Positions 1,182 through 51,791 of a stretch of 63,639 nt of DNA are shown here, in pieces. Every line of letters begins with the position of its first letter. Positions within the stretch are counted from its first letter, which is position 1. Made by a program: the position numbers and the translations under genes. The stretch comes from an uncultured Planctomycetales bacterium (GTDB taxonomy: Bacteria > Planctomycetota > UBA1135 > CAZMYG01). Below the pieces are notes generated by a model, which made no database searches, was not told where the DNA came from, and saw only the letters and a list, made by a program, of their open reading frames with translations. Where the stretch lies: positions 1-63,639 of the forward strand of contig CAZMYG010000002.1 of NCBI GenBank assembly GCA_964570465.1. The letters run 5' to 3'.

Positions 1182-1182
1182 T

Positions 1183-5946: not shown

Positions 5947-6039
5947 GTGCCGGCATCTTCTATCGAGTCTTCGCGCGAATTAACTGAAGTGGACTCAAGT
6001 ACCAACTAGCACTCAGCCGAAAAAGGCGGGGCACAGGAA

Positions 6040-7070: not shown

Positions 7071-7074
<4 letters not shown>
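6040..7074 (+). CDS. pseB: UDP-GlcNAc 4,6-dehydratase, PseB/CapD/FlaA1 family
   Basis: VLGGTGSIGS Rossmann motif, then FSRDEAKQ, HCAAMKHV, TDKAVNPSNVMGASK (YxxxK-equivalent region), RFGNV..SSGSV and MTRFF. The architecture is co-linear with FlaA1/PseB as I recall it. Inverting versus retaining specificity cannot be decided from motifs. Confidence 0.7.
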
Positions 7075-9061
<1,987 letters not shown>

Positions 9062-9063
9062 AC

Positions 9064-17515: not shown

Positions 17516-17523
17516 AGATTGTT

Positions 17524-18684: not shown

Positions 18685-18685
18685 T

Positions 18686-19702
18686 ATGAAAATAGGGGAA
18701 GCTACGAATCCTGTTGAAGTGATGACGATCGCAGGTCGGCGTGCTTTTGAAGAAGAGGATATTCCAAAAATTAGTGGATTCACTCTTCTAGGACTTGGAA
18801 TTGGTGATGTTCTTTGCATGCTACCAATGGTCGAACAGGCGGTTTCTCTTTTGGGAAAGCGGCTAGTCGTTTTTACACAAAGGCCAGAAGTTTTCCGCTA
18901 TCACCCTAGTGTTGATGCCGTATTTTCAACTACTCAGGCAATTCAGGATCATCTCAATTCTGGAAATTTGCTATTCCTTTGTCCGGTTTGTGGACTTGGG
19001 GATCGTTTCGAAGCCCATCTCATCGAACAGTCTGCTCGAGGCATCGTCGATCTTCCTACTGTTGCAAAACGAATTCGATTTTATTCGGATCTGTCTGCTT
19101 TGAATGTAGTGCAAGACAAACTGGCCGCTTTAAAAACAGATAGGCCGAGAGTTATTGTGCATCCCTCACAGAGTGTTCCTGTTCGCAGCTGGCCACGAGA
19201 AAGTTGGGTGGAATTGGTGCGCGAACTTCTTCGTAGCTACGAGGTGATTGCCATTGGGCAAGAAACGGCCGGACTTTCCTCTCAAGGAGAAAACGTTTCA
19301 AAATTTCCCTTATCCTTAGGGATAGAGGATCCACATTTCCATGATTGGACGGGGAAACTTTCTTTGCATGAGTCCTATGAATTGATTCGCTTGAGCGATT
19401 TAGTCATTACTGTGGACAGTGGAACGTTGCATCTTGCCAACTGTACTCAAACTCCCATCGTTTCTATTTTTACCCATGTTGCGCCAGAGTTTCGAATGCG
19501 ATTTGGCCCAGATGGAAAGATTGGCTATCAAACAATTCCTGTATTTTCTTCCTGCGAATATCAGTTCTGTGCGTCGCGATTTGGTTGTTATGACGACCGC
19601 TGTCGACTGGAAGGCAAAGAGGGTTACATGAAGTGTTTACCCAGCACTCGAGCCGTTCTCGACGCAGCGCAGCAATTTTTAAAGGCAAACAGTAACGGTT
19701 AA
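18686..19702 (+). CDS. GT9-family (heptosyltransferase-like) glycosyltransferase
   Basis: GDVLCMLPMV near the N-terminus and LSLHESYELIRLSDLVITVDSGTLHLANCTQTPIVSIF are typical of GT9. Confidence 0.7.
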   Translation: MKIGEATNPVEVMTIAGRRAFEEEDIPKISGFTLLGLGIGDVLCMLPMVEQAVSLLGKRLVVFTQRPEVFRYHPSVDAVFSTTQAIQDHLNSGNLLFLCPVCGLGDRFEAHLIEQSARGIVDLPTVAKRIRFYSDLSALNVVQDKLAALKTDRPRVIVHPSQSVPVRSWPRESWVELVRELLRSYEVIAIGQETAGLSSQGENVSKFPLSLGIEDPHFHDWTGKLSLHESYELIRLSDLVITVDSGTLHLANCTQTPIVSIFTHVAPEFRMRFGPDGKIGYQTIPVFSSCEYQFCASRFGCYDDRCRLEGKEGYMKCLPSTRAVLDAAQQFLKANSNG

Positions 19703-20088
19703 AGATTCGCCGGGTTTACAGAAGTGATACGGATTCCGTAGCTGTCTCCAATCGTCACCACATCTCCTTTTGCAACAGACTTCCCGTTGAGAATGATGTC
19801 CACAGGATCGGTAGATTGACGATCCAGGGTAATCACGGAACCAGGACCTAATTTCACGATCGTTTCTATAGGCAATTTGGTGTCGCCCAACATGACAGAA
19901 ACGCGGACTTTGACATCAAAGAGATGTTCCAATCCCAAACCGAAGGGTGAGGTAGAGTTTTCAGCACCCTGCAAAGTATTGAGCGTTGGTGCTTCAAGGG
20001 CAACTCCGGTCGCCCCGACAGGTGGAGTTGTGGCATCCGCTGGTTGTGGACTTGCTGCTAGAGTTTCTTCTTTTTTCTCTTCGCTCAT
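19699..20088 (-). CDS. fliN: Flagellar motor switch protein FliN
   Basis: C-terminal SpoA block VRVSVMLGDTKLPIETIVKLGPGSVITLDRQSTDPVDIILNGKSVAKGDVV. Confidence 0.9.
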   Translation of the reverse strand: MSEEKKEETLAASPQPADATTPPVGATGVALEAPTLNTLQGAENSTSPFGLGLEHLFDVKVRVSVMLGDTKLPIETIVKLGPGSVITLDRQSTDPVDIILNGKSVAKGDVVTIGDSYGIRITSVNPANL

Positions 20089-37809: not shown

Positions 37810-37833
37810 TCCAGTAACGAGAAGTTCCGATAA
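37807..37833 (+). promoter_or_regulatory. Sigma-28-like element TAAT-N15-TCCGATAA overlapping the flagellin stop codon
   Basis: The spacing is canonical and the -10 is identical to the one at 62901-62908. The -35 matches 3 of 4 positions. It would drive flaG-fliD-fliS. Confidence 0.3.
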
Positions 37834-37837
37834 TAGC

Positions 37838-37867
37838 TCAGGGAGGCGGTGGCAACCGCCTCCCTGA
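37838..37867 (+). terminator. Strong GC-rich hairpin downstream of flagellin, with no U-tract
   Basis: CAGGGAGGCGGT-GGCA-ACCGCCTCCCTG forms 12 perfect Watson-Crick pairs, plus a flanking T-A pair, with a 4-nt loop. It is followed by ATTCGCC rather than a T-run. Confidence 0.45.
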
Positions 37868-37938
37868 TTCGCCTTGTAGGCGGGGTTTCATATCCGCCTG
37901 GCATAGGAAGAAGGTAGGTGAAAGGAAAGAGGCCAAAC

Positions 37939-38277
37939 ATGGAAGCAGCAAATCCAGTGTTTGGAGGAGGGGCAAGCCCGGTTCGAAAGGACCAGGCCGT
38001 GAACGGAGCGAAGGCTCAAGTTTCACAAAAGGAAGATCGAAAAGAAGTTCCACAAGACGGAGCTTCGAGCGAGTCTTTAGTGCAAGGTCCGCTGAGCGGA
38101 GAAGGCGATAACTATTCGCTAACTTACTCGGTGGATCGAGATACGAAAGAAGTCATTACGAAAATCGTCGACGCGAAAAGCGGCGAGGTATTGCGAGAAG
38201 TTCCAGCAAAGGAATTGAGGAACGCGAAGAAAGCGTTGGAGGATTATCAGAAGTTGTTGTTCGATCAAGGCGCATAA
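37939..38277 (+). CDS. flaG: FlaG family protein
   Basis: The C-terminal block YSVDRDTKEVITKIVDAKSGEVLREVPAKEL is the typical FlaG signature. ATG 37939 has GGAAAGAGG upstream; the track start at 37918 is GTG. Confidence 0.75.
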   Translation: MEAANPVFGGGASPVRKDQAVNGAKAQVSQKEDRKEVPQDGASSESLVQGPLSGEGDNYSLTYSVDRDTKEVITKIVDAKSGEVLREVPAKELRNAKKALEDYQKLLFDQGA

Positions 38278-38292: not shown

Positions 38293-39759
38293 ATGGCGAT
38301 CAATTCTTTGGGATTGGGTTCCAGCTCTGGAATTAGTATTGCTGGTATCTCCAGTGGGTTGAACACAACAGCGATCATTGATGCGTTACTTGGCGTCGAA
38401 ACTAGAGCCATCAAACAGCCACTTCTGGATCGCAAATCGACACTTCAGTCTAAGCTCAGTGCCCTTTCTTCTTTTGAAACCAGGCTCAACACACTCAAGA
38501 GCAAGGCGGCTGAGTTAGATCGCCTTTCTGAAATTCTCGCTTACAGCGCGACTCCCTCTAATGAGAATGCTTTGACGGCGACCGCCGACGGCACGGCTGT
38601 CGAAGGTACCCATACGATCACGATTACATCGACCGCCAAGGCGGAGTCGGATGCGCAGCAAACAGGGTATGAAGATCCAGATACAACAACGGTGGGAACT
38701 GGAACGTTGACGATTAACTATGCGGGCACGGTTTACAACATCACGATCAATTCCGGCAATAACACCCTCAATGGAGTAGCTAACGCGATCAACAGTACAG
38801 CGACTTTGAATGAGTCTTTAGGGGCAACCGTAGTGAATACAGCCGCCAGTGGACAAACCCCCGTTTATAAATTGATCTTGACCTCGAAGGAAACAGGGAA
38901 GGTCGATGGTTACACCAATGTGATCAATGTCACAGCAGTTCCTAGCGGAGGAACTGGACCAGCCTTGTCTTTTACGAATTTAGTTCCAGCTACAAACGCC
39001 GTGTTGACCGTCGATGGAATTTCTGGAATCGAGCGAACGAGCAATACGATCTCCGGCAGTGTTGACGATGAGAGTGTGATCATTCCTGGCGTGACTTTGA
39101 ATCTGCTTTCGAGTGCGAGCGAATTTACGCTCACGGTAGGCAAAGACACGGAATCAGTGAAGGAGAAGATTCAGGAATTCGTCGACGCCTATAACGATCT
39201 TGCGCGATTTATCAAAACGCAGCAAAAGAAGACCGAAGGGCAAAATGTCAATCCGCTTTTCAATGATATTTCTCTCTCCGTTGCGTCTTCGAGACTTCCT
39301 GCGCTTCTTGCCAGTGTTCAGAACACTTCTCTCGACACGGATAGCCTCGCGCATAATTTGGCGCAAATTGGAATTACCGTTCAAACAGACAAAACACTCA
39401 AGATCGATAGTGATGCTCTGGATGATGCCTTGGATAGCGATTTCGAAGATGTTGGGCGTCTTTTTTCCGAGAGCGAAACGGGCGGCACCGATGGAGTAGC
39501 GAAACAAATCTACGATTTCATTCAGGATTTCATTAGCGGAACAACGGTGGATGGAGTGAGTTCCAAGGGTCTCATTAGCTCGGTTCGCGAGCAGACGGAC
39601 AGTCGAATTTCTACGATCAACGATCAATTAGTTCGGGCGGATACGCGGCTGTCAAAATACCAAGACCGCTTGACGAAACAGTTTTCAATCTTGGAACAGA
39701 CTTTAGGGCGTTTGCAAACACAGGGAAGTTTCTTAGGACAATCCCAATTCCAAACCTAA
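38293..39759 (+). CDS. fliD: Filament cap protein FliD
   Basis: N-terminus ISIAGISSGLNTTAIIDALLGVETRAIKQPL, a C-terminal coiled coil (YQDRLTKQFSILEQTLGRLQTQ), and 488 aa. Confidence 0.9.
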   Translation: MAINSLGLGSSSGISIAGISSGLNTTAIIDALLGVETRAIKQPLLDRKSTLQSKLSALSSFETRLNTLKSKAAELDRLSEILAYSATPSNENALTATADGTAVEGTHTITITSTAKAESDAQQTGYEDPDTTTVGTGTLTINYAGTVYNITINSGNNTLNGVANAINSTATLNESLGATVVNTAASGQTPVYKLILTSKETGKVDGYTNVINVTAVPSGGTGPALSFTNLVPATNAVLTVDGISGIERTSNTISGSVDDESVIIPGVTLNLLSSASEFTLTVGKDTESVKEKIQEFVDAYNDLARFIKTQQKKTEGQNVNPLFNDISLSVASSRLPALLASVQNTSLDTDSLAHNLAQIGITVQTDKTLKIDSDALDDALDSDFEDVGRLFSESETGGTDGVAKQIYDFIQDFISGTTVDGVSSKGLISSVREQTDSRISTINDQLVRADTRLSKYQDRLTKQFSILEQTLGRLQTQGSFLGQSQFQT

Positions 39760-39771
39760 ACGGATAAAAAT

Positions 39772-40170
39772 ATGCCGAGGCCAAATCTTGCGACAAGGGA
39801 GTATCTTAAAAATCTGGTTTTTAATGCGCCTAGACTCAAACTCGTGCAAATGCTCTACGATGAAGCGGTTTCAAGTTTGAATCGTGCGGAGAAACATTTG
39901 GATAGTGGCGACATGATTCGTTTCCGCGCATCGCTTGTAAAGGCACAAGAAATCGTCGGGGAGCTTTTTGCGAGCTTGAATTATGAGCAGGGCGGAGAAA
40001 TCGCAGATAATCTTGCTGCTCTCTATCAATTCAGTATCACTCAATTAATCGACGCAAATTTAAACAAGGCCAAGGCCTCGATTCAGACCGTTCAGCGGAT
40101 TCTCTCTACTCTCGAGGCGGCATGGGACAATATTTCGGATGAAAACCCTTCAGCAGGAAGATTGCAATGA
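39772..40170 (+). CDS. fliS: Flagellin chaperone FliS
   Basis: YLKNLVFNAPRLKLVQMLYDEAVSSL..., IVGELFASLNYEQGGEIADNLAALYQF; 132 aa. Confidence 0.9.
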   Translation: MPRPNLATREYLKNLVFNAPRLKLVQMLYDEAVSSLNRAEKHLDSGDMIRFRASLVKAQEIVGELFASLNYEQGGEIADNLAALYQFSITQLIDANLNKAKASIQTVQRILSTLEAAWDNISDENPSAGRLQ

Positions 40171-40535
40171 ATTCCACAACGGCATATTTGGAGGACCTGA
40201 TTGAGAAAACCACTCGCTGGCTTGCTGCTATTGACGAAGGCGATTTCAAAGCGTTGGAAGTGATGGGGTCGATCTGTGAACAGTCTCTCGCTCGTTTTCA
40301 GCAGGAAGGGACTTCACAATTTTCCGATTCGCTGCAAGACGCAGCAGAACGCGAGAGAGTCAAACTTCTCCTGGAAAAACTTCGGGGATTGACCGCTCTG
40401 TGCATTTCGAGGGCTCAAGAAAAACAACGGGAAGTAGCGGTATCGCTTGAGAAGACTCAGTCTGCAAGGCAAGTATTAGAAGCCTTGAGTGCGACCGAAG
40501 TTGAGCAGGTATCGAGCGTTGACCAAAGCGCGTGA
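40167..40535 (+). CDS. Helical 122-aa protein, possibly a FliT/FlgN-like export chaperone
   Basis: ATGA overlap with the fliS stop. The segment WLAAIDEGDFKALEVMGSICEQSL resembles the FliT A..G.W..L pattern. This is a weak similarity judged by eye. Confidence 0.4.
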   Translation: MNSTTAYLEDLIEKTTRWLAAIDEGDFKALEVMGSICEQSLARFQQEGTSQFSDSLQDAAERERVKLLLEKLRGLTALCISRAQEKQREVAVSLEKTQSARQVLEALSATEVEQVSSVDQSA

Positions 40536-42586
40536 CGCGGCACCGTCCACGCTGTATGGCAAGAAGGAAGGAGACGATGTATCTCGCATTAGTTCTGCCC
40601 CTTATTCAAACCATTGAACTCGCTTCCATAGAGGAACTTCAGTCCTCCCAAATTCAAGCGCAGGCCTCTTTCGGCAGTTCTGTTGCGGTTGTTCCAGATC
40701 TTGATGGCGATGGTGTCGCGGATTTCGCCGTCGGAGCCGACCGAGAAGATTTGGGAGAAGATCTTGAGGATGCGGGAGCGGTCTATGTGTTCTCTTCGGC
40801 AACGAGGAACGTTTTGCATCGCGTCGTCTCGCCAACCCCTACTGCCGCGGGATTTTTCGGCGTATCTGTCGCTGGGATTGAAGATCTCGATGGAGATGGC
40901 GCTGGAGAAATATTGGTCGGCACTTATTCAGAATGGGGAGGCGGTGCCCCGGTGAGCTCTGGGCGCGCGCATCTATTTTCTGGCGCAAGCGGAAATTGGA
41001 TTCGTAGTTTTATCTCTCCAAACCAGCAAGGCTTTGCTTACTTCGGAAAGTCCGTTGCCGCGATTCCCGATGTCAACGGTGATGGCAAGATGGATCTCTT
41101 AATTGGGGCGCATGGAGAAAACTTAGGTCCAGGGCTTCAGGATGCTGGACGTGCGTATGTGTTTTCCGGTGCGACAGGAAATCTCATTCGGACTTTAGTT
41201 TCTCCATTCCCCGAGGCTTTCGGATTATTCGGTTATGCGGTGTGCGGAATCGAGGATCTCGATCAAGACGGTCGCGGCGATGCTTTGATTGGAGCGCGAT
41301 TGGAGAATCCGGGAACAACGCCAATTGACGCTGGACGAGCCTATGTGTTTTCCGCTTGGACGGGAACTGTAATCCGTTCTATAGGTTCTCCCAACGAAGA
41401 GGGAAATGGACAATTTGGATTTTCTACTGCTGTCGTTCCGGATACCGATGGAGATGGTTTAGATGAAATTTTAGTTGGGGCCTATTTAGAAGATTCGAAT
41501 CACATTCCTCAACCTCCTCCGAATCCTCCACCTGCGCCACCAGAAGATGTTGGTCGCGCCTATCTTTTTTCTGGCTCGACGGGAAAACTTTTACGGACAT
41601 TCGAATCTGAAAATGAGGAAAATTCTGGACAATTCGCTTATTCGGTCTGCGGTGTCCCCGATGTCGATGGAGATGGATTTGGAGACATTCTCATCGCGGC
41701 GCATCAAGAGAACCTCTCTGAGGAACTCGAATCTGCAGGTCGCGCCTATCTTTTTTCTGGTTCGACGGGTCTTCTCCTACATGTGCTCACTTCGCCACAT
41801 CGTGAATCCTTCGGGAGTTTTGGATTCGCGCTTGCCTCTGCGCCGGATTTAGATGGAGATGGAGCCGGAGAAATTTTGGTGAGCGCGAGTGGTGAGAAAA
41901 TTTCCCAGACAGAATTGGGAGCAGGACGTGCCTATTTCATCAGTTGTCTTGTCGATTCCGATAACGATGGAGTCGGAGATCCGTGTGATCAATGCCCTGG
42001 ATTTGATGACACTCTCGATGCAGATTTCGATGGAATACCAAACGATTGCGACCCGACACCATTTCCGGAAATCATTGCGAGCAATCCCCCAAATGGAATC
42101 ATCGATGCGCGTCAACCAAGCCCCATTACCGGTGGAGCAGCGATGGGCTTTCAACAGATTCAATTAACGTTTTCTGGAAATGGAGTGGCGACGCATTTGC
42201 TCGCGTCGGATCTTGCCGTTTCGGAAGAAGGAGGCGATGGAGTTGCGCCAAACATCAGCGCGATAGAAGCCCTGGACCCGAATGTGGCGTTGGTTAGTTT
42301 GAGCGCCCCTGTTCAAGCGGGCGCCTGGACGCGGATCCGCTACATTCTCAGTGGGAGCGAAATTCGTTTTGGTTATTTGCCTGCCGATGTCAATGGAGAT
42401 GGTTACAGCGCGCCTATGGATATTTTGTATTTGATCAATTACTTCAACGGAGTAGTTTCGCTCCCAATTTGGTCGGCGGATATCAATCGCAACGGACTTG
42501 CTCATCAGTCCGATATTTTACGAGTGGTCGATTTGCTCAATGGTGCGGATGCTTTTGATCCTTGGATTGGCAGAACACTGCCGTAG
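40532..42586 (+). CDS. Seven-repeat FG-GAP (integrin-alpha-like beta-propeller) protein with a TSP3-like Ca-binding linker and a C-terminal dockerin-like domain
   Basis: Seven copies of FG..VA...D(L/V)DGDG..(D/E)(I/L)L(V/I)GA....AGRAY(V/L)FS. Then DSDNDGVGDPCDQCPGFDDTLDADFDGIPNDCDP. Then ADVNGDGYSAPMDILYLINYFNG...ADINRNGLAHQSDILRVVDLLNG. The start is ambiguous: GTG 40532 (GTGA overlap), ATG 40556 (MARRKETMYLALVLPL, signal-like), or ATG 40577 (good SD GGAAGGAG). Confidence 0.8.
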   Translation: MTRHRPRCMARRKETMYLALVLPLIQTIELASIEELQSSQIQAQASFGSSVAVVPDLDGDGVADFAVGADREDLGEDLEDAGAVYVFSSATRNVLHRVVSPTPTAAGFFGVSVAGIEDLDGDGAGEILVGTYSEWGGGAPVSSGRAHLFSGASGNWIRSFISPNQQGFAYFGKSVAAIPDVNGDGKMDLLIGAHGENLGPGLQDAGRAYVFSGATGNLIRTLVSPFPEAFGLFGYAVCGIEDLDQDGRGDALIGARLENPGTTPIDAGRAYVFSAWTGTVIRSIGSPNEEGNGQFGFSTAVVPDTDGDGLDEILVGAYLEDSNHIPQPPPNPPPAPPEDVGRAYLFSGSTGKLLRTFESENEENSGQFAYSVCGVPDVDGDGFGDILIAAHQENLSEELESAGRAYLFSGSTGLLLHVLTSPHRESFGSFGFALASAPDLDGDGAGEILVSASGEKISQTELGAGRAYFISCLVDSDNDGVGDPCDQCPGFDDTLDADFDGIPNDCDPTPFPEIIASNPPNGIIDARQPSPITGGAAMGFQQIQLTFSGNGVATHLLASDLAVSEEGGDGVAPNISAIEALDPNVALVSLSAPVQAGAWTRIRYILSGSEIRFGYLPADVNGDGYSAPMDILYLINYFNGVVSLPIWSADINRNGLAHQSDILRVVDLLNGADAFDPWIGRTLP

Positions 42587-42638
42587 TGTTAGCATCCCGC
42601 GCATTCGGCGGTCTTGAATTCATTTTTAAGGAGGGACT

Positions 42639-43412
42639 ATGTCATTTCGATTACTGCTGCTGGTTTTCTTGCTGTCATTTTGTTCTGGCTGTGCTTTGGT
42701 TGGATTAGGAGGAAGCGATTACCTGATCCAAGCAGAAGTCGGTATGTTCCAAATTAGCCCGGATGGGAATTTGGCTCTCGAAGACGGGAGTGGTCTCACG
42801 ACGGACAACTCATTAGAGGATCTTGGCCTAGATGACTCGGAGTCCCGACCTTATGCAAAAGCTTCGCTGCGATTGGGCTCGAATGAAATTTCTCTCTCTG
42901 GTTTTCAGATGGATTCCAGTGGTTCCGGTACTGTGACAGCCGCATTCGGTAATATCACCGCAGGAACTCCGGTCCAGTCCTCTCTGGAAATGACCAATGC
43001 AAAATTACTTTATCGTTGGTATCTCGTCGATTTGCCGATGATCAGCGTGGGTCCCGGAATTGGATTCGACTATATCGATATCAACGCCACGGCCACGGCG
43101 AGTTCTCTTTCGCTGACGGAAGAATTTGATGGCAAAGCCCCAATTCCAATGCCTGGAATTTCGGCAGAGTTTCGTCTCGGAGGATTGAGAGCATTCGCGG
43201 ATCTCTACGGGATGAAGGCAGATGTTGCGGATATTGATGGAACATTCTTGGATCTTGAAGGAGGTGTTCGTTATTCACCGATTTCCAAAGTGGAAGCAAC
43301 GCTTGGCTATCGTCTGATCAGTATCGATATCTCTGGCAAGGATGGAACACGTGATTTTGATGTGGATTATTCTTTGCCCGGTTTGTTCTTTAGTGCAGGT
43401 ATTCGTTTCTAA
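42639..43412 (+). CDS. Outer-membrane beta-barrel protein
   Basis: Signal peptide MSFRLLLLVFLLSFCSGCALVG, alternating hydrophobic beta-strand pattern, and a C-terminal aromatic residue (FFSAGIRF). SD AAGGAGG. Confidence 0.6.
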   Translation: MSFRLLLLVFLLSFCSGCALVGLGGSDYLIQAEVGMFQISPDGNLALEDGSGLTTDNSLEDLGLDDSESRPYAKASLRLGSNEISLSGFQMDSSGSGTVTAAFGNITAGTPVQSSLEMTNAKLLYRWYLVDLPMISVGPGIGFDYIDINATATASSLSLTEEFDGKAPIPMPGISAEFRLGGLRAFADLYGMKADVADIDGTFLDLEGGVRYSPISKVEATLGYRLISIDISGKDGTRDFDVDYSLPGLFFSAGIRF

Positions 43413-43420
43413 CCCTTCCT

Positions 43421-44596
43421 TTGAATGACCGTGCCGAGTTCGAGCAAGCACAGCTCATTTTCCAGGAGGCGGTGTCGCATAAAAATGCCGGACGCCTGGA
43501 AAATGCGGAACAACTCTATCGCCAACTCTTAGCGAAATACCCAGAACTTTTTGAAGCTTGGCATAACCTTGCCAATGTTTTGAAAGTGCAGGGGAAATTT
43601 AATCCTGCATTGGAATGCTACCGGAAAGCTCTTTCTCTGCGTCCCGACGATGCCGAGACTCAATTCAATCAAGCAACAACTTATTTACTGTTGGGGGAAT
43701 GGGAAAAGGGTTGGCAGGGATATGAGTCGCGGCTTGCCTTGAAAACGACGAAGCGTGCGAACGCTCTCCCGATCTGGCGTGGCGAAGATATTTCTTCCAA
43801 GGGAATCTTGGTTTATCCAGAGCAAGGTTTTGGAGATGCCATCCAATTTGCTCGCTATCTTCCGCTTCTTCGCGAACGAGCAGAGCGAGTGTATTTTGAA
43901 TCACCAGCTCCATTGCGCCGATTGTTTGAGACTTTGCAAGGAGTCGACGCTTTTGTTGATCCAGGCGAAACAATGCCGCAATGTGCGCTCCAAGTTTCTC
44001 TTTTGAGCCTTCCTAAAATTCTGAATATTCATGTAGATAAAGTTCTTCCTTGCATCCCTTATTTTGCAGTGAAAGAGGAGTGGAAGCGTGCGCAAACTCT
44101 GAATCCCTCTAAAAACGATCTCAAAGTAGGTTTCTGTTGGGCAGGGAATCCGCAATATGGTCAAGATCGTTTTCGATCGACTTCGCTAGACATTTGGAAA
44201 CCGTTATTTCGTATTCCTGGAATTTCTTGGTTTAGCTTGCAAAAGGGAGAGCCCTCTAGAGTTTTAGAAACATTTGAATTCCGGGAAACAATTGTTCCGT
44301 TGGGGGAAAAGCTCCAAGACTTTGCCGATACGGCAGCTGCCATTTCCCAACTCGATCTTATTATCAGCACAGATACGGCTGTTCCTCATCTAGCAGGGGC
44401 ATTGGGCAAGCCAGTTTGGTTGTTGCTTTCCTTGGTGCCTGATTGGCGATGGTTACTTGATCGGCAGGATTCGCCTTGGTACCCCAGTATGAAACTTTTT
44501 CGACAAATTCAACGAGAGGATTGGGGGAGTGTTATCGAGGAGTTGCGCCGCGAGCTGCAAGAACGGATTGGAGTGAATCGACAACTTCTTCCATAA
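43421..44596 (+). CDS. TPR + GT9-like glycosyltransferase (single module)
   Basis: N-terminal TPRs (AEQLYRQLLAKYPELFEAWHNLANVL...). The catalytic part has EQGFGDAIQFARYLPLL, VGFCWAGNPQ, FADTAAAISQLDLIISTDTAVPHLAGALGKPVWLLL and PDWRWLLDRQDSPWYPSMKLFRQ. TTG start as given in the track. Confidence 0.7.
   Translation: MNDRAEFEQAQLIFQEAVSHKNAGRLENAEQLYRQLLAKYPELFEAWHNLANVLKVQGKFNPALECYRKALSLRPDDAETQFNQATTYLLLGEWEKGWQGYESRLALKTTKRANALPIWRGEDISSKGILVYPEQGFGDAIQFARYLPLLRERAERVYFESPAPLRRLFETLQGVDAFVDPGETMPQCALQVSLLSLPKILNIHVDKVLPCIPYFAVKEEWKRAQTLNPSKNDLKVGFCWAGNPQYGQDRFRSTSLDIWKPLFRIPGISWFSLQKGEPSRVLETFEFRETIVPLGEKLQDFADTAAAISQLDLIISTDTAVPHLAGALGKPVWLLLSLVPDWRWLLDRQDSPWYPSMKLFRQIQREDWGSVIEELRRELQERIGVNRQLLP
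44438..44487. repeat. Left arm of a perfect 50-bp inverted repeat
   Basis: The sequence cctgattggcgatggttacttgatcggcaggattcgccttggtaccccag has its exact reverse complement at 44641-44690, checked base by base. Confidence 0.95.
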
Positions 44597-47426
44597 CGCT
44601 CAGCCAGTCGCCTGGCTTCTTTTGGCGGAAGAGTCTCATGCTGGGGTACCAAGGCGAATCCTGCCGATCAAGTAACCATCGCCAATCAGGATTGAAGGGG
44701 AGGAGAGTCCAAGCGGGCTTTCCTAGGGCACCTACAAGATGGGTGACGGAAGTATCAACGGAAATTACCAAATCAAGTTGTTCTATCGCCCAAGCGGTCT
44801 CTGCAAAATCGGTAAGAAATGCAGATAGATCTACAATCGGCATAAACTTTTTGAGTTCCGTGCAAAAATTGCTAGCGGATCCTTTTTGCAAACTAAAAAA
44901 CTGTACGCCAGAAACCTCAGCGAGCGTCTTGAGATAAATTGGAGGCAGGCATCGACGATCGTTATCGACGTGCTTTGGATTCCCTTGCCAGCAAAGTCCA
45001 ATCTTGGGTTGGTTCTGTTGCTCTAAAATTCGGCGAAGTTGCGGCCCTGCTTCGATGTTTGCGCTTAAATACGGTGATTCCTTGGGGATGGTTTTCAGGG
45101 TTGTTTCAAAAATTTTTGGTAGATCGAGCAAGGGTACGTGCAGACAGTCCGGAGGCCTTTTTTGTCCCTTTTCGATGACGAGATCGACGCCTTGCATCGA
45201 TTTAAAAAGTCGTGAGAGACCTGGAGCGCATTCTACTGCGACCATGCCGACTCTGGATTTTACGAGTGCTGCGTAGCGGATGAATTGAATACTGTCTCCA
45301 GCGCCTTGTTCGGTGAGTAGCAAAACCGTTTTCTTTGGAGCCATTTCTCCATTCCAGGTTGGGTTTCTCAATTCATCCGAACTCAGCTCGGCACATTGCC
45401 TCAGTGCGGCGTATTCCTTCCATCCACGATCGAAGTTTCCTTGAGCGAGCAACAGGCAGCCACGATTGAATATGGCTTCCGAAAAATTTGGAACTAACTC
45501 AATGGCGCGATCGAAGTGGGCTAGAGCTTTGGAGTATTCCCCTTGGGATTGGTAATGCAAGGCAAGCATGTTGTGAACATTGGCCATGTCTGGATTGAGT
45601 TCCAGGGCTTTGAAAAAGCAGCGAGTTGCTTTTTCCCTCCAAAAGAATTGGGAATAGCAGATTCCCAAATTGCAGTAGGCAGAGGCCAGAGAATTTTGGA
45701 AATCCTTAGATGGAGTGTATCCTTCTTTGCTTTGCGCCTCGCTAAGTTCAATGCCTTTCTCTAGTTTTTCAATTGCTTGTCCCCAAGCTTTTTCCAAGCT
45801 CAGGATGTTTCCCCATTGTAGGTAGGCGAAAGAATAGTTTGGATTTTCAGTAGCAGCGCGCTCTAGATAAAACAAACTTTCATTTTTTTCTCCGCGCTCA
45901 AAAAGTAGAACGCCTAGATTGCAATGGGCTGTCGAATTTCTGGGATCCACCGAAAGTGCTTCGCGGCAAAGCCGAATTGCTTCTTGCGGGTTGCCTTCCT
46001 GGTTCATTTTTGCAGCACGATTGGCCAAAGAATTAGATTTGCATCGCGCGCTCAAGGGCTGCAGTTCTTTCGACACCTCTTCGAGCACAGATGCCCAATC
46101 TCCAGCACTGGGTTGACGAAACAATTTTGCGGAGGGATACCAAGGACTGTCATCGCGATCGATCATCCATCTCCATTCGGGCGAATGGGGCAGGAGAATC
46201 CAAGTGCGTTTGCCCAAGGCGCCAGCGAGATGTGCGACAGAAGTATCTACGCTGATGACGAGGTCGAGTTCTTCGATCATCGCTGCTGTATCTGCAAAGT
46301 CGGCCCACTGATCTTGATAGTTTTTCATCGGGATTGGCGAGGCGCTCAAATCAGATCCTGGAGTGAGTTTTTGCAGGCTGAACCATTCCACGTTGGGTTG
46401 ACTTGCTAATGGAGTTAGTTCTTGGAGAGGAATGGATCGCATTGAATCCTGGGCATGTCCCGAATTTCCTTGCCAGCAGATTCCGACACGCAAGGCATCG
46501 CTGGCATCTCCTAAGCGTTGTTTCCAATGTTTTTGGTTCGATTTTTCGGCACTGAGATAGGAAAGATACCGAGGCAGAGTTTCTTCGTTGCTGCGGAAAA
46601 TGGAAGGCAAACTGCCGATCGGAATTTGTAAGTCAAAGTGAGGCAGAGCTTCGCCAGCTAGATGTAGTTCGTCGATTCCAGGCACGGTAGCAAACAAACG
46701 TCCGAGAGCTTTTTGACATTGCAACAATACTTTCCCGCCACGGGCTTTCACCATTGGTAAGAAGCGAATCCACTGAATGGCATCGCCATAGCCTTGTTCT
46801 GCATGAACCAAAAGGCTCCGGCCTTGGAAATTTTCTCCCTGCCAAAGCGGTTGCTTGGGAGATCGAGAGATTTCTTCCGGAAATTGCAGACGCCATTCAT
46901 ATTCACGCCAACCCTTTTCAAAATCGCCGTGCAAGAGGTGGAGAATTCCTAAATTGAAGTGAGCTTCGATGGATTTTGGATTGACCAGTAGGGCTTGTTC
47001 GTAGCATTCCAACGATTTTTCGTACTTGCCTAGGAGTCGGTGACAAAACCCTAAGTTCATCCAAGCGGCTTCAAATAGTCTGTCGAGCTCGATAGCCAGT
47101 TGATACTCTTGAACCGCTTCTTCGAGTTTGTTCTCAAGTCGGTAGATATTTCCCCAATAGAAATGAGATTCTGAAAGTTCGGGATTAAGTTGAGTCGCTT
47201 TTTGAACGTGGTGTTGTGCATCTTCAAATTTTCCTAATTTTGCTAAGCACATCCCCAGTCGAGCAAGAGAGGAAGCATCTTGTGGGTTTTGTGTAAGGAC
47301 TTCTTGATAGCAGCGAGCGGCTTCATTCCATTGCTTGCGTTCAAACAAAGAATCGGCCATTTGTTCAAGGCTTTGAGTGGTCGTTGCCACGGTGTTTGAG
47401 GTGTTAGGCCCTGGCTTCGCCGACAT
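44532..47426 (-). CDS. Tandem (TPR + GT9-like) x2 glycosyltransferase
   Basis: Two modules. Module 1 has EQGYGDAIQWIRFLPMV ... DLVISVDTSVAHLAGALGKRTWILLPHSPEWRWMIDRDDSPWYPSAKLFRQ. Module 2 has EQGAGDSIQFIRYAALV ... DLVISVDTSVTHLVGALGKPAWTLLPFNPDWRWLLDRQDSPWYPSMRLFRQ. Each module is preceded by TPRs. The 3' end overlaps the convergent gene by 65 nt. Confidence 0.75.
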   Translation of the reverse strand: MSAKPGPNTSNTVATTTQSLEQMADSLFERKQWNEAARCYQEVLTQNPQDASSLARLGMCLAKLGKFEDAQHHVQKATQLNPELSESHFYWGNIYRLENKLEEAVQEYQLAIELDRLFEAAWMNLGFCHRLLGKYEKSLECYEQALLVNPKSIEAHFNLGILHLLHGDFEKGWREYEWRLQFPEEISRSPKQPLWQGENFQGRSLLVHAEQGYGDAIQWIRFLPMVKARGGKVLLQCQKALGRLFATVPGIDELHLAGEALPHFDLQIPIGSLPSIFRSNEETLPRYLSYLSAEKSNQKHWKQRLGDASDALRVGICWQGNSGHAQDSMRSIPLQELTPLASQPNVEWFSLQKLTPGSDLSASPIPMKNYQDQWADFADTAAMIEELDLVISVDTSVAHLAGALGKRTWILLPHSPEWRWMIDRDDSPWYPSAKLFRQPSAGDWASVLEEVSKELQPLSARCKSNSLANRAAKMNQEGNPQEAIRLCREALSVDPRNSTAHCNLGVLLFERGEKNESLFYLERAATENPNYSFAYLQWGNILSLEKAWGQAIEKLEKGIELSEAQSKEGYTPSKDFQNSLASAYCNLGICYSQFFWREKATRCFFKALELNPDMANVHNMLALHYQSQGEYSKALAHFDRAIELVPNFSEAIFNRGCLLLAQGNFDRGWKEYAALRQCAELSSDELRNPTWNGEMAPKKTVLLLTEQGAGDSIQFIRYAALVKSRVGMVAVECAPGLSRLFKSMQGVDLVIEKGQKRPPDCLHVPLLDLPKIFETTLKTIPKESPYLSANIEAGPQLRRILEQQNQPKIGLCWQGNPKHVDNDRRCLPPIYLKTLAEVSGVQFFSLQKGSASNFCTELKKFMPIVDLSAFLTDFAETAWAIEQLDLVISVDTSVTHLVGALGKPAWTLLPFNPDWRWLLDRQDSPWYPSMRLFRQKKPGDWLSVMEEVVDSLQSVLAARGATPR
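44641..44690. repeat. Right arm of a perfect 50-bp inverted repeat
   Basis: The sequence ctggggtaccaaggcgaatcctgccgatcaagtaaccatcgccaatcagg is the exact reverse complement of 44438-44487. The flanking bases on both sides mismatch. Confidence 0.95.
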
Positions 47427-49806
47427 GTTCTAAGGCCTCCAATGCCTTTTGTGCTTGCTCGTAGTTTGGCCAAATGGAAAGAGCGTCTTTGTAGGCGCGT
47501 TGGGCTTCTTCGATTCGCTGGAGGAATTTCAAAGATTCCCCTCTGCCAAAGTGGGCGATGGGGCCCAAGATTCCAGGCTGCACTGGAACCTGGAAGACCT
47601 TTTCTTGGATCTGCAAAAGTCGATCAAACATTTGCAAACTCAGATGGGCGTTCTTGTTGTGCAAGGCAAGGCAAGCAATCGCGAAAATGAAATTGGGCGT
47701 TTCGACTAGTCGCTGTTTCGCCTGAAGAAGCATTTCTAATGCTTCGCTGCTTTCTCCTCGGTGCATGCGATCGAAAGCATAAAAAGCATAGACCTCGGCA
47801 GCATAAATTTGTTTGCGCGCTTCGGAGGCCGGAAGAGCGTTTAGTAAGGTAAAGGCGCGTTCAATGGCTTGCTTCGATTCTTCGGGGGAAAAAGGGCGAA
47901 GGAAATTCGCGAATTGATACCACGAGTAAGGGTCGTTTGGATTTTGCTGAAGTTGCTTCTCAGTTAGTTTTCGATTTCGTTCGCGTTTCCCTTTCTGCGT
48001 TTCTATTTGATCCTGATGCCCGAAGTGAAGAATTCCAAACTCCGCGCGCAAAATTTCTTGTTTTCGTTCTTGAGCGAGTGCCAGCAACGGTTCCAGGATT
48101 TGTTCATGTACGATATTTTTGAAACGGATGCTTGGGTGATTTCTAAACAACCGAACGACATACAGTTCTTCTTTGACCGTTCCTTGCGAGTCGATGTTTT
48201 TTAAAGGCAGCTCGTAGGCAATTGCTTTCGAATTGTTTAACGCGTTGCGAATCCAACTTGCTGCTTCACCTTCCAGCACTTCATCTGCGTCCAGAAATAG
48301 AATCCATTCTCCACGAGCTGTCTCGATCGAGCGGTTACGTGCACGAGAGAAATCATCTTGCCAGGGATCTTCGATGATTTTTGCTCCGTAGCGTTTTGCA
48401 ATTTCGACGGTTCGGTCAGTTGAGCCGGTATCTACTACGATGAGTTCATCAATGATGCCTTGTACTGAGTGCAGGCATCGTTCCAACGAGTCTTCTTCAT
48501 TGCGAACAATCATGCACAAGGAAAGGAGCGGTGGGGCAGAGGGAGTTGTGTTTGCCCGATTGAGTGCTTGTTTCAGTAGTGGGATTCCAAATTTATTCCA
48601 GTCTGCTGTTGGTTCAGGATTACGTTCAAAATATTTGGTCAGCAATTCCAAAGCATCGAGCTGTTTTTCCTGTGAGAGTAGGAGTTGTGTATAGGAAAGA
48701 GTCGCCGGCAGATAATCCGGAGAAAGGTGTAAGGATTTCTGGTAGGCAGATTCTGCTTTCTCTTTTTGATTTAGCGCGACCCAGCATTGAGCAATTCCAT
48801 ACCAAGAAACAGGACCAGTGATTCCCCATTGCATGGCGATGTTGCTGACGGTATCCGCAAATTTCAAACAGTGCTGATAGTTTTTAATCGCCTCTGCAAA
48901 TGCACTTCGCTGACGCAAAATACATGCCTTGGCAAAGTAAAAGTTTGCAGAAAGTGGGAGTTCGAGTTTTTCTGCGGTATCGAGAGTCTCTGTTGCTTTT
49001 GCCGATTGTCCGGCGGCTTGTAATTCGCTTGCAAGCAACGCGCAAACTTCGGAGGCATAGAGCAAATTCTCACGATGCGCTTTAGGCATTGCCTGAATCA
49101 GGCCCAAGGATTTTTTCAGCGCTTCAATCCCGTGATCGAGATTTTGTTTTCGAAGCCAGTCCCCGTACTTGTACCAGGAGTAGGGATCGTCTGGAAAAAG
49201 TGCTAACTGCTTTTCAAATAATAGCTCGTATCTTTTATCCTTTTGTTTGCGCGACATTTCGTTGCGCAGATATCCGAAGTGTTTGATCTCGGCCTTGCAG
49301 TTTTCTGAGCGCAGACCCATCGGCTCCGCCACGCTTTGTAAATGCCCTAGAATTTGTTCATGTAGAGCGTAGATCCATTTCACGCCGGGAAGATTTCGTA
49401 TCAATCTCGGAAGCAAATAGTGATCTTCCTTGCCATCGTCTAATACATTTGAGAAGTGCAGATAATAGGCATAAACCGTCAAGTCTTTTGCGGCATTACG
49501 TAGAAGCGCTGCGCTGCCTGTTTGCAAAATCTCATCGGCATCAAGCCAAAGAATCCATTCTCCCGTTGCATGAGGGATCGCGGCGTTACGGGCCTCCGCA
49601 AAATCGTCATTCCATTTGTGAGAGAAGACTTTTGCTCCAAAACGTTTTGCGATTTCGATGGAATCATCGGTGGAGCCAGTGTCGACAATGATGATTTCAT
49701 CTACGGCAGGCGCTGCAGCTTCTAAACAACGTGCGAGAATGTGCCCTTCATCACGCACAATCATGCAAAGCGAAATGAGCGATGGCTTTGTGTGTGCCAT
49801 GCTCAT
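47404..49806 (-). CDS. Tandem (GT2 + TPR) x2 glycosyltransferase
   Basis: Two copies of the GT2 core. Copy 1: LCMIVRDEGHILARCLEAAAPAVDEIIIVDTGSTDDSIEIAKRFGAKVFSHKWNDDFAEARN...WILWLDADE. Copy 2: LCMIVRNEEDSLERCLHSVQGIIDELIVVDTGSTDRTVEIAKRYGAKIIEDPWQDDFSRARN...WILFLDADE. Each copy is followed by TPR-like helices. Confidence 0.8.
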   Translation of the reverse strand: MSMAHTKPSLISLCMIVRDEGHILARCLEAAAPAVDEIIIVDTGSTDDSIEIAKRFGAKVFSHKWNDDFAEARNAAIPHATGEWILWLDADEILQTGSAALLRNAAKDLTVYAYYLHFSNVLDDGKEDHYLLPRLIRNLPGVKWIYALHEQILGHLQSVAEPMGLRSENCKAEIKHFGYLRNEMSRKQKDKRYELLFEKQLALFPDDPYSWYKYGDWLRKQNLDHGIEALKKSLGLIQAMPKAHRENLLYASEVCALLASELQAAGQSAKATETLDTAEKLELPLSANFYFAKACILRQRSAFAEAIKNYQHCLKFADTVSNIAMQWGITGPVSWYGIAQCWVALNQKEKAESAYQKSLHLSPDYLPATLSYTQLLLSQEKQLDALELLTKYFERNPEPTADWNKFGIPLLKQALNRANTTPSAPPLLSLCMIVRNEEDSLERCLHSVQGIIDELIVVDTGSTDRTVEIAKRYGAKIIEDPWQDDFSRARNRSIETARGEWILFLDADEVLEGEAASWIRNALNNSKAIAYELPLKNIDSQGTVKEELYVVRLFRNHPSIRFKNIVHEQILEPLLALAQERKQEILRAEFGILHFGHQDQIETQKGKRERNRKLTEKQLQQNPNDPYSWYQFANFLRPFSPEESKQAIERAFTLLNALPASEARKQIYAAEVYAFYAFDRMHRGESSEALEMLLQAKQRLVETPNFIFAIACLALHNKNAHLSLQMFDRLLQIQEKVFQVPVQPGILGPIAHFGRGESLKFLQRIEEAQRAYKDALSIWPNYEQAQKALEALEHVGEARA

Positions 49807-51791
49807 GTGGATTCATTTCCCTTTTGATTTTCTTGGTGGGGATCTATTTGGGGTGTTTCTGCAACGCAAACTCGATTTCTTCCGGCGTGTTTCGCTGCAT
49901 ACAGAGCGCCGTCTGCACGTCCTAGCATTCCTTCGTATTTTTCTTGTTCGCTTGCCATTTCAGCGACGCCGATGCTGACGGTCAGCGTGAGGCCGCGTAG
50001 CCAATCTGCATTTTGTCGCCCCAGATCTTCGATGGAATGACGGATGCGCTCAGCTGCGAGGCGAGCATTTTCGATCTGTGCGCCTGGAAGTACGATCAGA
50101 AACTCTTCACCTCCGTAGCGGCCGACTAAGTCGCCCTGCCTTACCGTATTTCGAAGACGTTCACCGGTTTTTCGAAGCACTTGGTCTCCGGCGAGATGGC
50201 CTAATTTGTCGTTCAATTGTTTGAAGTGATCGATATCTAAAATCAGAATAGAAAGAGGTTGTTTCGTGCGTGCGGCTCGGTCCGCTTCTTCGGAGAGTAC
50301 TTCCATCAAGCGTCGGCGATTGAAAGTTCCTGTCAAAGGGTCCGTTACCGCCATGTTTTGAACGGTTTGGTAGAGACGAAAGTTTTCGAGTAGCAACCCT
50401 GCTTGGGCGGTTAGTCCCGCAAGTGCTTCCTCAGCGTGTGCAGGAATTTCTTGTTTGGAGCTGGCTCGATCTGCCGCCAGGAGATATCGAAGCGTATGCC
50501 CTTCTTGAATCGGAGCGAGGACTAACTCTTGGGAATTTAGATTTGTCAGTAGAGGGTGTTGAACATTTTCAGTCGCCGCCTTGAGTCGGATGCCACCAGC
50601 GGTCTGAAGCGTGTCGTCTGGGCCTAAAGAAATGGTGGTTCCCTCCAGCGCTGAACCAGTTCCATCGTGACTGGTTGCTTTTGCAACGGTGAATTGAGTA
50701 TTTGATTCTACGGCGAGGAGAAATGCTCTGTCGTAGCCCAACGTGCTGACGATTTCGGCAAGAAGCAAGTCAACGGGATCTTCCTCTCCGAGTCTTTGCT
50801 GAGCATTGATAAGCGCGCTGTTCAAAGAGCTCAGTCCTCGATTCGCAAGTTCTAATTGAACGGCAATTCGACCAAGCTCTGCATTAGCGCGTAGTAATGC
50901 TCTCTGCCATCTTTCTTCTTTGTCATCGCCATAACGGAAAATTTCTGCTCCTCGAGTTACTTCCGCGTGAATTTCATCAAAGGCTTTGGGCAGCTCAATA
51001 TTCGCAAGCATTTCGAGAACGCAAACACCAGGAGTCGGTGGAATGACGGTGTCCACTAGCCCATAACCCGCGCTCCACGCGAGGTGATCCGCGGTTGCGG
51101 TGAGTTGAACTAATTTGATGGCGCTTGGGCTTAGTGGCTCTCGTGCTTGTTCTGGGTGAGCGTGATAACGAATCGCTTCGACGAGTGGCTGGGGCAATCG
51201 CCAGCGAACGGCCAGTTTCGCTCCAATTTCGACGTGAGTGGTCTCAAAGATTTCTTGCTCAGCGCTAAGCAATGCGTCGCCTCCCTGTGCTTGTGCGCGG
51301 TGGAGGATTTCGCGATATGTGTCAGGCATAGACGAGTCAAACATCAGGATGCCAATTTTATGCAGCAGACTCGCCACATACGCTTCTTCTGGATTTTCAT
51401 AGTGGCCAGCATTGGAAAGCCATTTTGCCGCTGCAGCGGAAGCTACAGCGTGTTTCCAAAACAACATGCGATCGAGTTTTCCTTGACCACCTATTTTGGA
51501 GAGAGTGTCGAATACGGAGAGGCTTAACACGAGTGTGCGCACGCGACGCATGCCCAGAATTGTTGTCGCATACCGGATGCTTGATACAGAGAAGCGCAGC
51601 CCAAACGCCGCAGAATTGACGACTTTAAGTAGTTTCGCAGACATAGAAGGATCGCGGCTGACAAGTTCGGCAATTGTTTCTGCGGAAGCGCGATCGGAGA
51701 GAGTGAGTTCTAAGAGCTCTGTGGCGATTTCTGGCAGGGTAGGCAGAGTATCGACCTGTGAAAAAATCCGGTCGTTGATTTGCTGTGCCAT
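49803..51791 (-). CDS. HDOD - GAF-like - GGDEF diguanylate cyclase with an RxxD I-site
   Basis: HDOD N-terminus LPTLPEIATELLELT...DPSMSAKLLKVVNSAAFGL. GGDEF region TGTFNRRR...LILDIDHFKQLND..GH.AGD...VRQGDLVGRYGGEEF, with RQGD five residues before GGEEF. 4-nt overlap with the downstream GT2-TPR gene. Confidence 0.85.
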   Translation of the reverse strand: MAQQINDRIFSQVDTLPTLPEIATELLELTLSDRASAETIAELVSRDPSMSAKLLKVVNSAAFGLRFSVSSIRYATTILGMRRVRTLVLSLSVFDTLSKIGGQGKLDRMLFWKHAVASAAAAKWLSNAGHYENPEEAYVASLLHKIGILMFDSSMPDTYREILHRAQAQGGDALLSAEQEIFETTHVEIGAKLAVRWRLPQPLVEAIRYHAHPEQAREPLSPSAIKLVQLTATADHLAWSAGYGLVDTVIPPTPGVCVLEMLANIELPKAFDEIHAEVTRGAEIFRYGDDKEERWQRALLRANAELGRIAVQLELANRGLSSLNSALINAQQRLGEEDPVDLLLAEIVSTLGYDRAFLLAVESNTQFTVAKATSHDGTGSALEGTTISLGPDDTLQTAGGIRLKAATENVQHPLLTNLNSQELVLAPIQEGHTLRYLLAADRASSKQEIPAHAEEALAGLTAQAGLLLENFRLYQTVQNMAVTDPLTGTFNRRRLMEVLSEEADRAARTKQPLSILILDIDHFKQLNDKLGHLAGDQVLRKTGERLRNTVRQGDLVGRYGGEEFLIVLPGAQIENARLAAERIRHSIEDLGRQNADWLRGLTLTVSIGVAEMASEQEKYEGMLGRADGALYAAKHAGRNRVCVAETPQIDPHQENQKGNEST

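Follow-up and report, generated by a model that had tools for sequence, protein, structure and literature searches.

The question raised by this locus is why a gene for an FG-GAP propeller protein with a dockerin-like C-terminus stands in the tail of a late flagellar operon, and whether its product belongs to the flagellum. The locus lies within a stretch of DNA of 63,639 nt (the window; all positions are those of its forward strand) from an uncultured diderm bacterium of biofilter and biofilm metagenomes. The window was compared with contigs L001 to L009 and with strain X7, which is about 95% identical, comes from biofilm metagenomes and spans the same junctions. The reading favored here, with moderate confidence, is that the FG-GAP/dockerin protein is an accessory surface or secreted protein whose gene was inserted in the operon tail. 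It would then be neither a structural part of the flagellum, nor a client of orf122, the small protein encoded before it, nor an obligate partner of the outer-membrane (OM) beta-barrel protein encoded after it. The genes and translation signals concerned are the following.

37939..38277, forward strand: flaG, 112 aa from ATG 37939 (Pfam FlaG, 1.2e-11); the 112-aa form agrees with L001 and L002, and GTG 37918 upstream is also open as a start
38293..39759, forward strand: fliD, filament cap (Pfam FliD_N, 4.6e-19; FliD_C, 3.6e-40)
39772..40170, forward strand: fliS, flagellin export chaperone (Pfam FliS, 8.9e-33)
40167..40535, forward strand: orf122, in the position of fliT; encodes a three-helix protein that evolves fast
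40566..40573, forward strand: Shine-Dalgarno site GGAAGGAG for ATG 40577, read in the sequence
40577..42586, forward strand: FG-GAP/dockerin gene, 669 aa; other in-frame starts are GTG 40532 and ATG 40556
42628..42635, forward strand: Shine-Dalgarno site AAGGAGGG of the barrel gene, read in the sequence
42639..43412, forward strand: OM beta-barrel gene, 257 aa

The junctions between these genes are as the first-pass annotation had described them. The fliS and orf122 genes overlap by ATGA at 40167-40170, a point on which the map of open reading frames (ORFs) and the raw sequence agree. The long ORF that follows can be opened at GTG 40532, where it overlaps the stop codon of orf122 in GTGA, and has in-frame ATGs at 40556 and 40577. 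The barrel gene begins at ATG 42639, 52 nt past the end of the long ORF at 42586, behind a strong Shine-Dalgarno site. No promoter or terminator was called by sequence prediction in the 41-nt gap before the FG-GAP gene. The same gene order recurs on contigs from other runs (L001, L002, L003 and strain X7) and is therefore not an assembly artefact.

Gene order in relatives carries the favored reading. In L001, whose core proteins are about 80-95% identical to those of the window, the order is flaG-fliD-fliS-orf121-FG-GAP-OMP-TPR/GT, where OMP is the outer-membrane barrel protein and TPR/GT is a protein with tetratricopeptide repeats and a glycosyltransferase domain. L002 and L003, which come from other runs, carry an identical FG-GAP protein in the same order. 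In L004/L005, L008 and L009, FliS is 56-60% identical and the GC content is 56-66%, vs 48% in the window. The order on these contigs is flaG-fliD-fliS-orfX-OMP, with an orfX of 111-121 aa and no FG-GAP gene. The 391-aa TPR-GT gene that follows the barrel gene in the window is also missing past the OMP gene in L004 and L008; the L009 contig ends at the OMP gene. Conservation of the whole arrangement was thus found in L001 and the strain of about 95% identity, but not in L004/L005, L008 and L009. Since orfX and the barrel are both kept where the FG-GAP gene is missing, orf122 is not a dedicated chaperone of the FG-GAP protein, and the barrel is not a dedicated anchor for its dockerin. Both roles had been proposed earlier, along with a flagellar role of the protein drawn from its co-location with flagellar genes, and these three related lineages speak against all of them. 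Judged from gene order, the FG-GAP gene rides along in the operon of one lineage, and neither orf122 nor the barrel depends on it; orf122/orfX and the barrel are the conserved partners of fliS.

The position of the gene is unusual for its family. None of 82 other FG-GAP propeller loci had flagellin, flaG, fliD, fliS or the barrel in its flanks. This background set includes matches from a JGI scan that are distant propeller paralogues of 25-35% identity. The unit of linker, middle domain and dockerin was found only in L001-L003. The JGI scan with the pair of FG-GAP orthologues as query returned distant propeller paralogues only. In the big-database search, a single true orthologue was found, P0002 (in L001), 70% identical over 98% of the query; the thousands of further FG-GAP matches covered the propeller only, with at most 72% of the query. 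As a member of a very large family, the FG-GAP protein is ordinary; what is unusual is the position of its gene, which is restricted to one lineage.

Such a distribution can result from gain or from loss. In a neighbor-joining tree of the barrel proteins, the pair formed by the window and L001 is sister to the three lineages without the FG-GAP gene, and the outgroups are non-flagellar. A single gain would be the simplest reading of this tree, although a single loss on a very short branch would also be possible. The corresponding alternative is an ancestral place of the FG-GAP gene in a fliS-orfX-(FG-GAP)-OMP module, followed by a single loss in the sister clade (L004, L008 and L009). This was judged unlikely. 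The lineages without the gene do form one clade on a short branch, so that a single loss explains the tree equally well, and the codon usage of the FG-GAP gene is fully native. However, the outgroup barrel homologues (L006/L007) are neither flagellar nor adjacent to an FG-GAP gene. The 391-aa TPR-GT gene, a local paralogue of a 964-aa gene, points to gene gain in the lineage, and the internal branch is so short that two or three independent losses may be needed. On the sequences compared, the FG-GAP gene most likely arrived in the lineage of the window and L001 by insertion between orf122 and a cis-element that precedes the barrel gene. Recent horizontal acquisition was considered and rejected, as the codon usage and GC content of the gene are like those of its neighbors. 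No direct or inverted repeats suggesting a mobile-element insertion flank the FG-GAP gene, and the metagenomes with the locus hold no deletion variants without it.

The cis-element was recognized in alignments of the DNA 5' of the barrel gene.

42590..42603, forward strand: conserved intergenic motif TAGCATCCCGCGCA, family pattern TAVCATCCSSSNMA

The consensus of this motif is TA[GAC]CATCC-SSS-N-[AC]A. It occurs exactly once per OMP-bearing flagellar locus, always 5' of the OMP gene and at a distance of 33-50 nt from its ATG (L001 4739-4752, L004 4501-4514, L008 818-831 and L009 7612-7625). The motif is kept despite GC contents of 48-66%, and the window holds one match vs 0.03 expected by chance. 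In the window, it stands 3 nt past the FG-GAP stop codon, with the FG-GAP gene upstream of it. The motif may be a promoter, an operator or a translational element. The DNA 5' of the OMP gene has no conserved RNA fold, a comparison of the window with Rfam was negative, and consensus scans for sigma-54 and sigma-28 sites showed nothing convincing before the FG-GAP or OMP genes.

The motif raises the alternative that the barrel gene is transcribed independently, from a promoter of its own at the TAVCATCC motif, and has no function in the flagellum. This is possible but doubtful. The constant place of the motif before the ATG in all lineages is in its favor, as are the distant family members that lie outside flagellar loci and the form of the window motif itself, which reads as the -10 element of a sigma-70-like TTGGCA-17-TAGCAT site with an upstream TG. 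Against it, the -35 part is not conserved, and no promoter was called in L001, L004 or L008. The place of the barrel gene after fliS-orfX is kept across GC contents of 48-66% and at a FliS identity of only 56-60%, and the conservation of the barrel equals that of FliS and exceeds that of FliD.

The domain content of the FG-GAP/dockerin protein was then established as follows.

40670..41941, forward strand: seven-bladed FG-GAP beta-propeller, aa 32-455, one DxDGDG Ca2+ loop per blade
41504..41557, forward strand: 18-aa Pro-rich insert IPQPPPNPPPAPPEDVGR, which lengthens blade 5 and is not in the L001 orthologue (pairwise alignment)
41942..42067, forward strand: Asp/Cys-rich TSP3-like linker, aa 456-497, two DxDxDG loops
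42068..42373, forward strand: middle domain of about 100 aa, 73% identical to L001
42374..42586, forward strand: two-segment dockerin-like module with the stop codon; loops DVNGDG (aa 604) and DINRNG (aa 635)

The FG-GAP content is firm, with a Pfam FG-GAP match of 3.6e-52 and 174 bits vs a gathering cut-off of 22.1. The earlier count of seven repeats is exact: a regular expression and a DNA repeat finder both gave seven FG/FA...DxDGDG units with a 62-aa (186-nt) period. The Ca2+-loop pattern D[LVT][DN][GQ]DG is present in 7/7 blades, and Dx[DN]x[DN]G loops number 11 over the whole protein. The likeness of the linker to TSP3 repeats holds at the level of motifs, namely two DxDxDG loops and four Cys between aa 457 and 491 (457, 470, 473 and 491), including the motif DSDNDGVGDPCDQCP...DADFDGIPNDCD; Pfam TSP_3 (PF02412) gave no match at E <= 0.01. 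A match of the linker to the NCBIfam model MtsC (thrombospondin-3) at 7e-4 is far below the cut-off. The middle domain had no match by sequence in Pfam or the Protein Data Bank (PDB).

The dockerin assignment was verified with a small margin. Pfam Dockerin_1 (PF00404) scored 23.9 bits vs 22.9, and the isolated C-terminus scored 26.3 bits (8.7e-6); the matches of the module to PDB dockerins are weak. Part of this likeness is generic, because Dx[DN]xDG loops are common to EF-hand, dockerin, TSP3 and FG-GAP contexts (PMC3123361). No cohesin match was found among the proteins of the window. The 3' part of the dockerin module, at 42473-42570, has matches of about 80-85% identity on several other, longer contigs from these metagenomes, and the word depth doubles there. 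The module is therefore common to several genes of this organism or community and is not a barrel-specific device.

The start codon of the FG-GAP gene bears on the export route, and the first-pass annotation had called it ambiguous. The ambiguity is now largely resolved, as only ATG 40577 has an equivalent common to both orthologues. In L001, an in-frame TAA lies 39 nt 5' of the FG-GAP ATG with no start codon in between, so that ATG 40577 is the sole shared start and the protein has 669 aa. The L001 counterpart has GGAGGAG ahead of this ATG. At the conserved start, the N-termini of the window protein and the L001 orthologue read MYLALVLPLIQTI... and MSALAFLLAFLQF..., and residues 2-13 form a hydrophobic core in both (Kyte-Doolittle, KD, 2.5). 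This core is comparable to the signal peptides of FG-GAP homologues, which are of the ordinary type. In the window, a start at ATG 40556 would give MARRKETMYLAL... and put three K/R residues before the core, and a start at GTG 40532 also adds a basic n-region; the extension is not conserved.

A further alternative is that the FG-GAP protein is a non-flagellin cargo of flagellar type III export with orf122 as its dedicated chaperone. Non-flagellar proteins are exported by the flagellar apparatus in Campylobacter and Yersinia. The Campylobacter FlaC/Cia/FspA proteins and Yersinia YplA take this route without a hydrophobic signal. The FG-GAP protein would resemble them in being a non-flagellar protein expressed in the flagellar regulon. 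Its gene adjoins that of a putative chaperone, as in the fliS/flagellin and fliT/fliD pairs, and its N-terminus is without the basic n-region of a classical Sec signal. However, unlike those proteins, it begins with a hydrophobic core and contains Cys pairs and numerous Ca2+ sites, and its putative chaperone is also present in relatives without the FG-GAP gene, where orfX occupies the same position. Substrates of the flagellar type III secretion system (fT3SS) have a hydrophilic, disordered N-terminus with no Sec-type core, and the FG-GAP protein has a 12-residue hydrophobic core in its place. A length of 669 aa, the 11 Ca2+ loops and the four linker Cys would suit an oxidising, Ca2+-rich compartment, and the homologues have ordinary signal peptides. 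Export as flagellar cargo was therefore judged very improbable. The hydrophobic N-terminus, the four-Cys linker and the Ca2+ loops fit Sec export better than the flagellar channel.

The accessory role can be set out as a putative pathway. The FG-GAP gene would most likely be transcribed by read-through from fliS-orf122, together with the late flagellar genes, and its mRNA would be translated from its own Shine-Dalgarno site. The product would most likely cross the inner membrane by Sec via its uncharged hydrophobic signal and fold with Ca2+ and disulfides outside the cytoplasm. It would act there as a secreted or surface-attached binding protein, made at the same time as the late flagellar proteins, and would have been co-opted into the flagellar regulon as an accessory.

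Selection on the gene was measured by comparing the window with L001. The identity is 92% for flaG, 92% for FliS and 95% for the barrel; it is 79.5% for FliD, 72% for the FG-GAP protein and 58% for orf122. Within the FG-GAP protein, the propeller is 66% identical, the linker 89% and the dockerin 90%. The proportion of nonsynonymous differences (pN) in the FG-GAP gene is 0.19 vs 0.75 for synonymous differences (pS), and dN/dS in the C-terminal third is about 0.05. These values indicate that the FG-GAP gene is under purifying selection. The gene is functional, yet fast-evolving.

The divergence from L001 is also mosaic along the locus. The baseline nucleotide identity is 0.82-0.88, and islands with an identity of 0.55-0.72 and saturated synonymous sites lie at 38430-39630 (mid fliD), 40230-42330 (orf122 and the propeller) and 44430-46530 (part of the 964-aa TPR-GT gene). 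Such a pattern would be in keeping with an exchange of alleles, or with diversifying evolution of those parts that are exposed or interact.

These rates are relevant to the alternative that the FG-GAP/dockerin protein is a true component associated with the flagellum, such as a decoration of the filament, sheath or basal disc or an adhesin, held by its dockerin at the OM, possibly via the barrel or another partner. The gene lies inside the late flagellar operon with short gaps, and it has stayed there for as long as it took synonymous divergence to saturate. Conservation is highest in the dockerin and linker, at 89-90%, the propeller evolves fast like exposed proteins do, and a conserved OM barrel adjoins. 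Against these points, fliS-orfX-OMP is kept in three related lineages that have no FG-GAP gene, and the barrel, which has no cohesin-like domain, is conserved at 95% vs 70-72% for the FG-GAP protein. The dockerin segment is also found on unrelated contigs, and no FG-GAP homologue elsewhere lies near flagellar genes. A flagellar component of this kind is considered quite unlikely.

The reading as an inserted accessory gene also has observations that weigh against it. Synonymous sites between the window and L001 are saturated while the position of the FG-GAP gene is kept, as would be expected of a useful and not an accidental position. On the barrel tree, a gain of the gene is hardly more parsimonious than a loss. 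At the 40577 start, no Lys or Arg stands ahead of the hydrophobic core, which makes the Sec signal atypical, and the nearest AxA site (AQA/S) is 30 residues in, which is distant for such a signal. None of the RNA-seq runs searched contained the locus sequence, and the co-transcription is inferred.

The small protein between fliS and the FG-GAP gene was characterized by structure prediction and by searches. AlphaFold2 predicts three helices for orf122 (pLDDT 78). Pfam FliT (PF05400) aligns over nearly its full length with E 0.021 and 16.1 bits, below the cut-off of 29.5, and matches 1/5 of the positional homologues. A small all-helical protein directly 3' of fliS is found in five lineages. The orfX proteins of 111-121 aa in L001, L004, L008 and L009 are 19-58% identical to orf122, and the distant ones align with it over the full length at 19-26% identity. 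A word-indexed search with orf122 returned the query itself only, and in an exhaustive search of 1.84 billion representatives the single match was the L001 orthologue. Foldseek gave nothing significant for orf122 (best E 0.78; the FliT-FliD entry 6ch2 had E 1.3), and the orf122 profile found nothing significant in the PDB. Because the fold and profile searches were not significant, the assignment to FliT rests on gene position and the sub-threshold Pfam match. The protein is best regarded as a helical orphan that evolves fast and occupies the position of fliT, and it is probably a cytoplasmic FliT-like export chaperone or regulator.

The protein encoded after the FG-GAP gene has all the marks of an OM beta-barrel. 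AlphaFold2 predicts a closed barrel (pLDDT 84). A lipoprotein-type signal peptide (...SGC/A) is present, with an L-[SG]-G-C lipobox that is conserved in the family. The C-terminus is ...IRF, and the terminal Phe is invariant. Foldseek matched Pla, OmpT and other OM barrels with a probability of 1.00 and TM of about 0.6; for Pla/OmpT, TM was 0.63 and E 8e-8, at 10-11% identity. Identity as an omptin protease was considered and rejected, as the likeness is one of fold only, the profile has no sequence match in the PDB, and the alignment contains no invariant His, a residue of the omptin Asp/Asp/Asp/His active site. The model TIGR04219 aligns over nearly the full length with E 4.7e-11 and 42.4 bits vs a cut-off of 105, and by this score the barrel is a distant relative of that family and not a member. 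No family in Pfam or the PDB covers the barrel; YfaZ and the generic OMP barrel are sub-threshold. No cohesin-like domain is attached, so the protein is a bare barrel.

The barrel is 95% identical to its L001 counterpart and 55-60% identical to those of L004, L008 and L009. A search with the barrel found seven clusters only among 5.8 billion, and neither a pattern scan of the GTDB species representatives, made from the barrel alignment, nor a JGI metagenome scan found a relative. A distant homologue of 35% identity (L006/L007) lies in a non-flagellar locus and has no adjoining FG-GAP gene. The orf122 and barrel families are both extremely rare, and neither was found in 185,579 GTDB species genomes by pattern scan.

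The locus can be compared with known systems. The order of flaG, fliD, fliS and a helical protein of about 120 aa is like that of the fliDST and flaG-fliD-fliS operons of Salmonella/E. coli, Helicobacter and Pseudomonas. The genes likewise overlap or stand close together, in a locus with fliA, flhFG and sigma-54 regulators. In contrast to those operons, the product of the gene behind fliS matches Pfam FliT no better than at E 0.021, and the array is extended by the OM barrel throughout the clade and by the FG-GAP/dockerin and TPR-glycosyltransferase genes in this lineage. Searches of the literature for FG-GAP with fliS, dockerin with Planctomycetes, and an OMP downstream of fliS gave nothing relevant.

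The FG-GAP/dockerin protein is most similar in build to secreted FG-GAP "integrin alpha-like" proteins (PF01839), here represented by P0041, P0071 and P0080 from Planctomycetota/Phycisphaerae. These have at least 7 blades with DxDGDG loops and 40-50% propeller identity, and several of them likewise join the propeller with TSP3-type and dockerin-like Ca2+ loops. Unlike the window protein, they have basic signal peptides and non-flagellar neighbors, and the C-terminal unit of the window protein is found in its own orthologues only. In comparison with the cellulosomal type I dockerin, the window module likewise pairs two EF-hand-like segments, in which Dx[DN]x[DN]G loops are followed by a helix, but no cohesin or glycoside hydrolase is nearby, and the host is a flagellated diderm.

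For the barrel, the Vibrio proteins FlgO/FlgP/FlgT and the Campylobacter proteins FlgP/FlgQ offer a parallel. They are OM or periplasmic accessories that are encoded in flagellar loci and are clade-restricted. The barrel is like them in that it is an OM protein or lipoprotein, has its gene among flagellar genes and is confined to a clade. It differs from them in its post-fliS position and in having no sequence similarity, and it is known here from genes alone. A bolder proposal is that fliS-orfX-barrel encodes an unrecognised flagellar OM component (an accessory of the sheath, disc or bushing), with orfX as the chaperone of the barrel or of FliD, and that the FG-GAP protein was recruited to it as a Ca2+-dependent, flagellum-linked adhesin that only motile cells express. 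We regard this proposal as improbable.

If the reading as an accessory insert is true, the locus shows on a small scale, and cleanly, how accessory surface genes are acquired by a late flagellar operon, and an adhesin-like protein is made only during filament building. The barrel after fliS-orfX would be a candidate clade-specific flagellar OM protein, which is more useful to the field than the FG-GAP protein. The conserved fliS-orfX-barrel module and its cis-element are the more interesting part of the locus, compared with the FG-GAP insertion. These functional statements rest on gene context in uncultured organisms.

The array is closed by one more gene and a probable end of the transcription unit.

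43421..44596, forward strand: 391-aa TPR + GT9-like (GT-B) gene (Pfam TPR and Glyco_transf_9), which closes the array
44602..44617, forward strand: terminator-like hairpin followed by a T-run, the probable transcription-unit end

The 391-aa protein is 40-42% identical to each half of a convergent 964-aa protein, whose gene (44532-47426, minus strand) is a tandem duplication of the TPR + GT9-like unit. At their 3' ends, the two genes share about 65 nt. FlmG is a flagellin O-glycosyltransferase with an N-terminal TPR domain and a C-terminal GT-B domain (PMC7591256). The 391-aa protein and both halves of the 964-aa protein are like FlmG by architecture alone, with TPR followed by a GT9-like (GT-B) domain in a flagellar and sugar island. 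The 391-aa gene fits the glycosylation theme of the island and not the FG-GAP protein.

The upstream end of the array was examined for transcription signals. A strong GC hairpin, GGGAGGCGG...CCGCCTCCC, follows flagellin at 37840-37867, and a second stem-loop lies before flaG. Within 37826-37890, a TCCGATAA box right after the flagellin stop codon resembles a sigma-28 -10 element. Transcription of flaG-fliD-fliS may be by read-through from flagellin or may start near the TCCGATAA box; both are possible.

Over its full 64 kb, the window forms an island of flagellar and glycosylation genes. On the minus strand at 20-28 kb lie fliM, fliL, fliJ, fliI, fliH, fliG and fliF. This fliM-fliF block is followed by sigma-54 activators and kinases, and then by flagellin and flaG-fliD-fliS. 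The 391-aa TPR + GT9-like gene, convergent TPR-GT genes and an HDOD-GGDEF gene lie 3' of the region, and fliOPQR-flhBA-flhFG-fliA occupies 52-61 kb. A GTDB scan with FlhA returned Acidobacteriota MAGs of 43% identity and nothing else. The HDOD-GGDEF gene (49803-51791) stands between the glycosyltransferase genes and fliO and is kept in L001, L004 and L008, which suggests that c-di-GMP signalling is built into the flagellar island.

The first 20 kb of the window (1-20000) contains a formyltransferase-like gene, a LuxC/LuxE-type acyl-CoA reductase and acyl-protein synthetase, an AMP-binding enzyme and three dehydratase/epimerase genes. It also encodes three multi-GT4 proteins of 900-1060 aa, one of them with TPR repeats. 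This sugar-modification block is probably a pathway for a flagellin or surface glycan.

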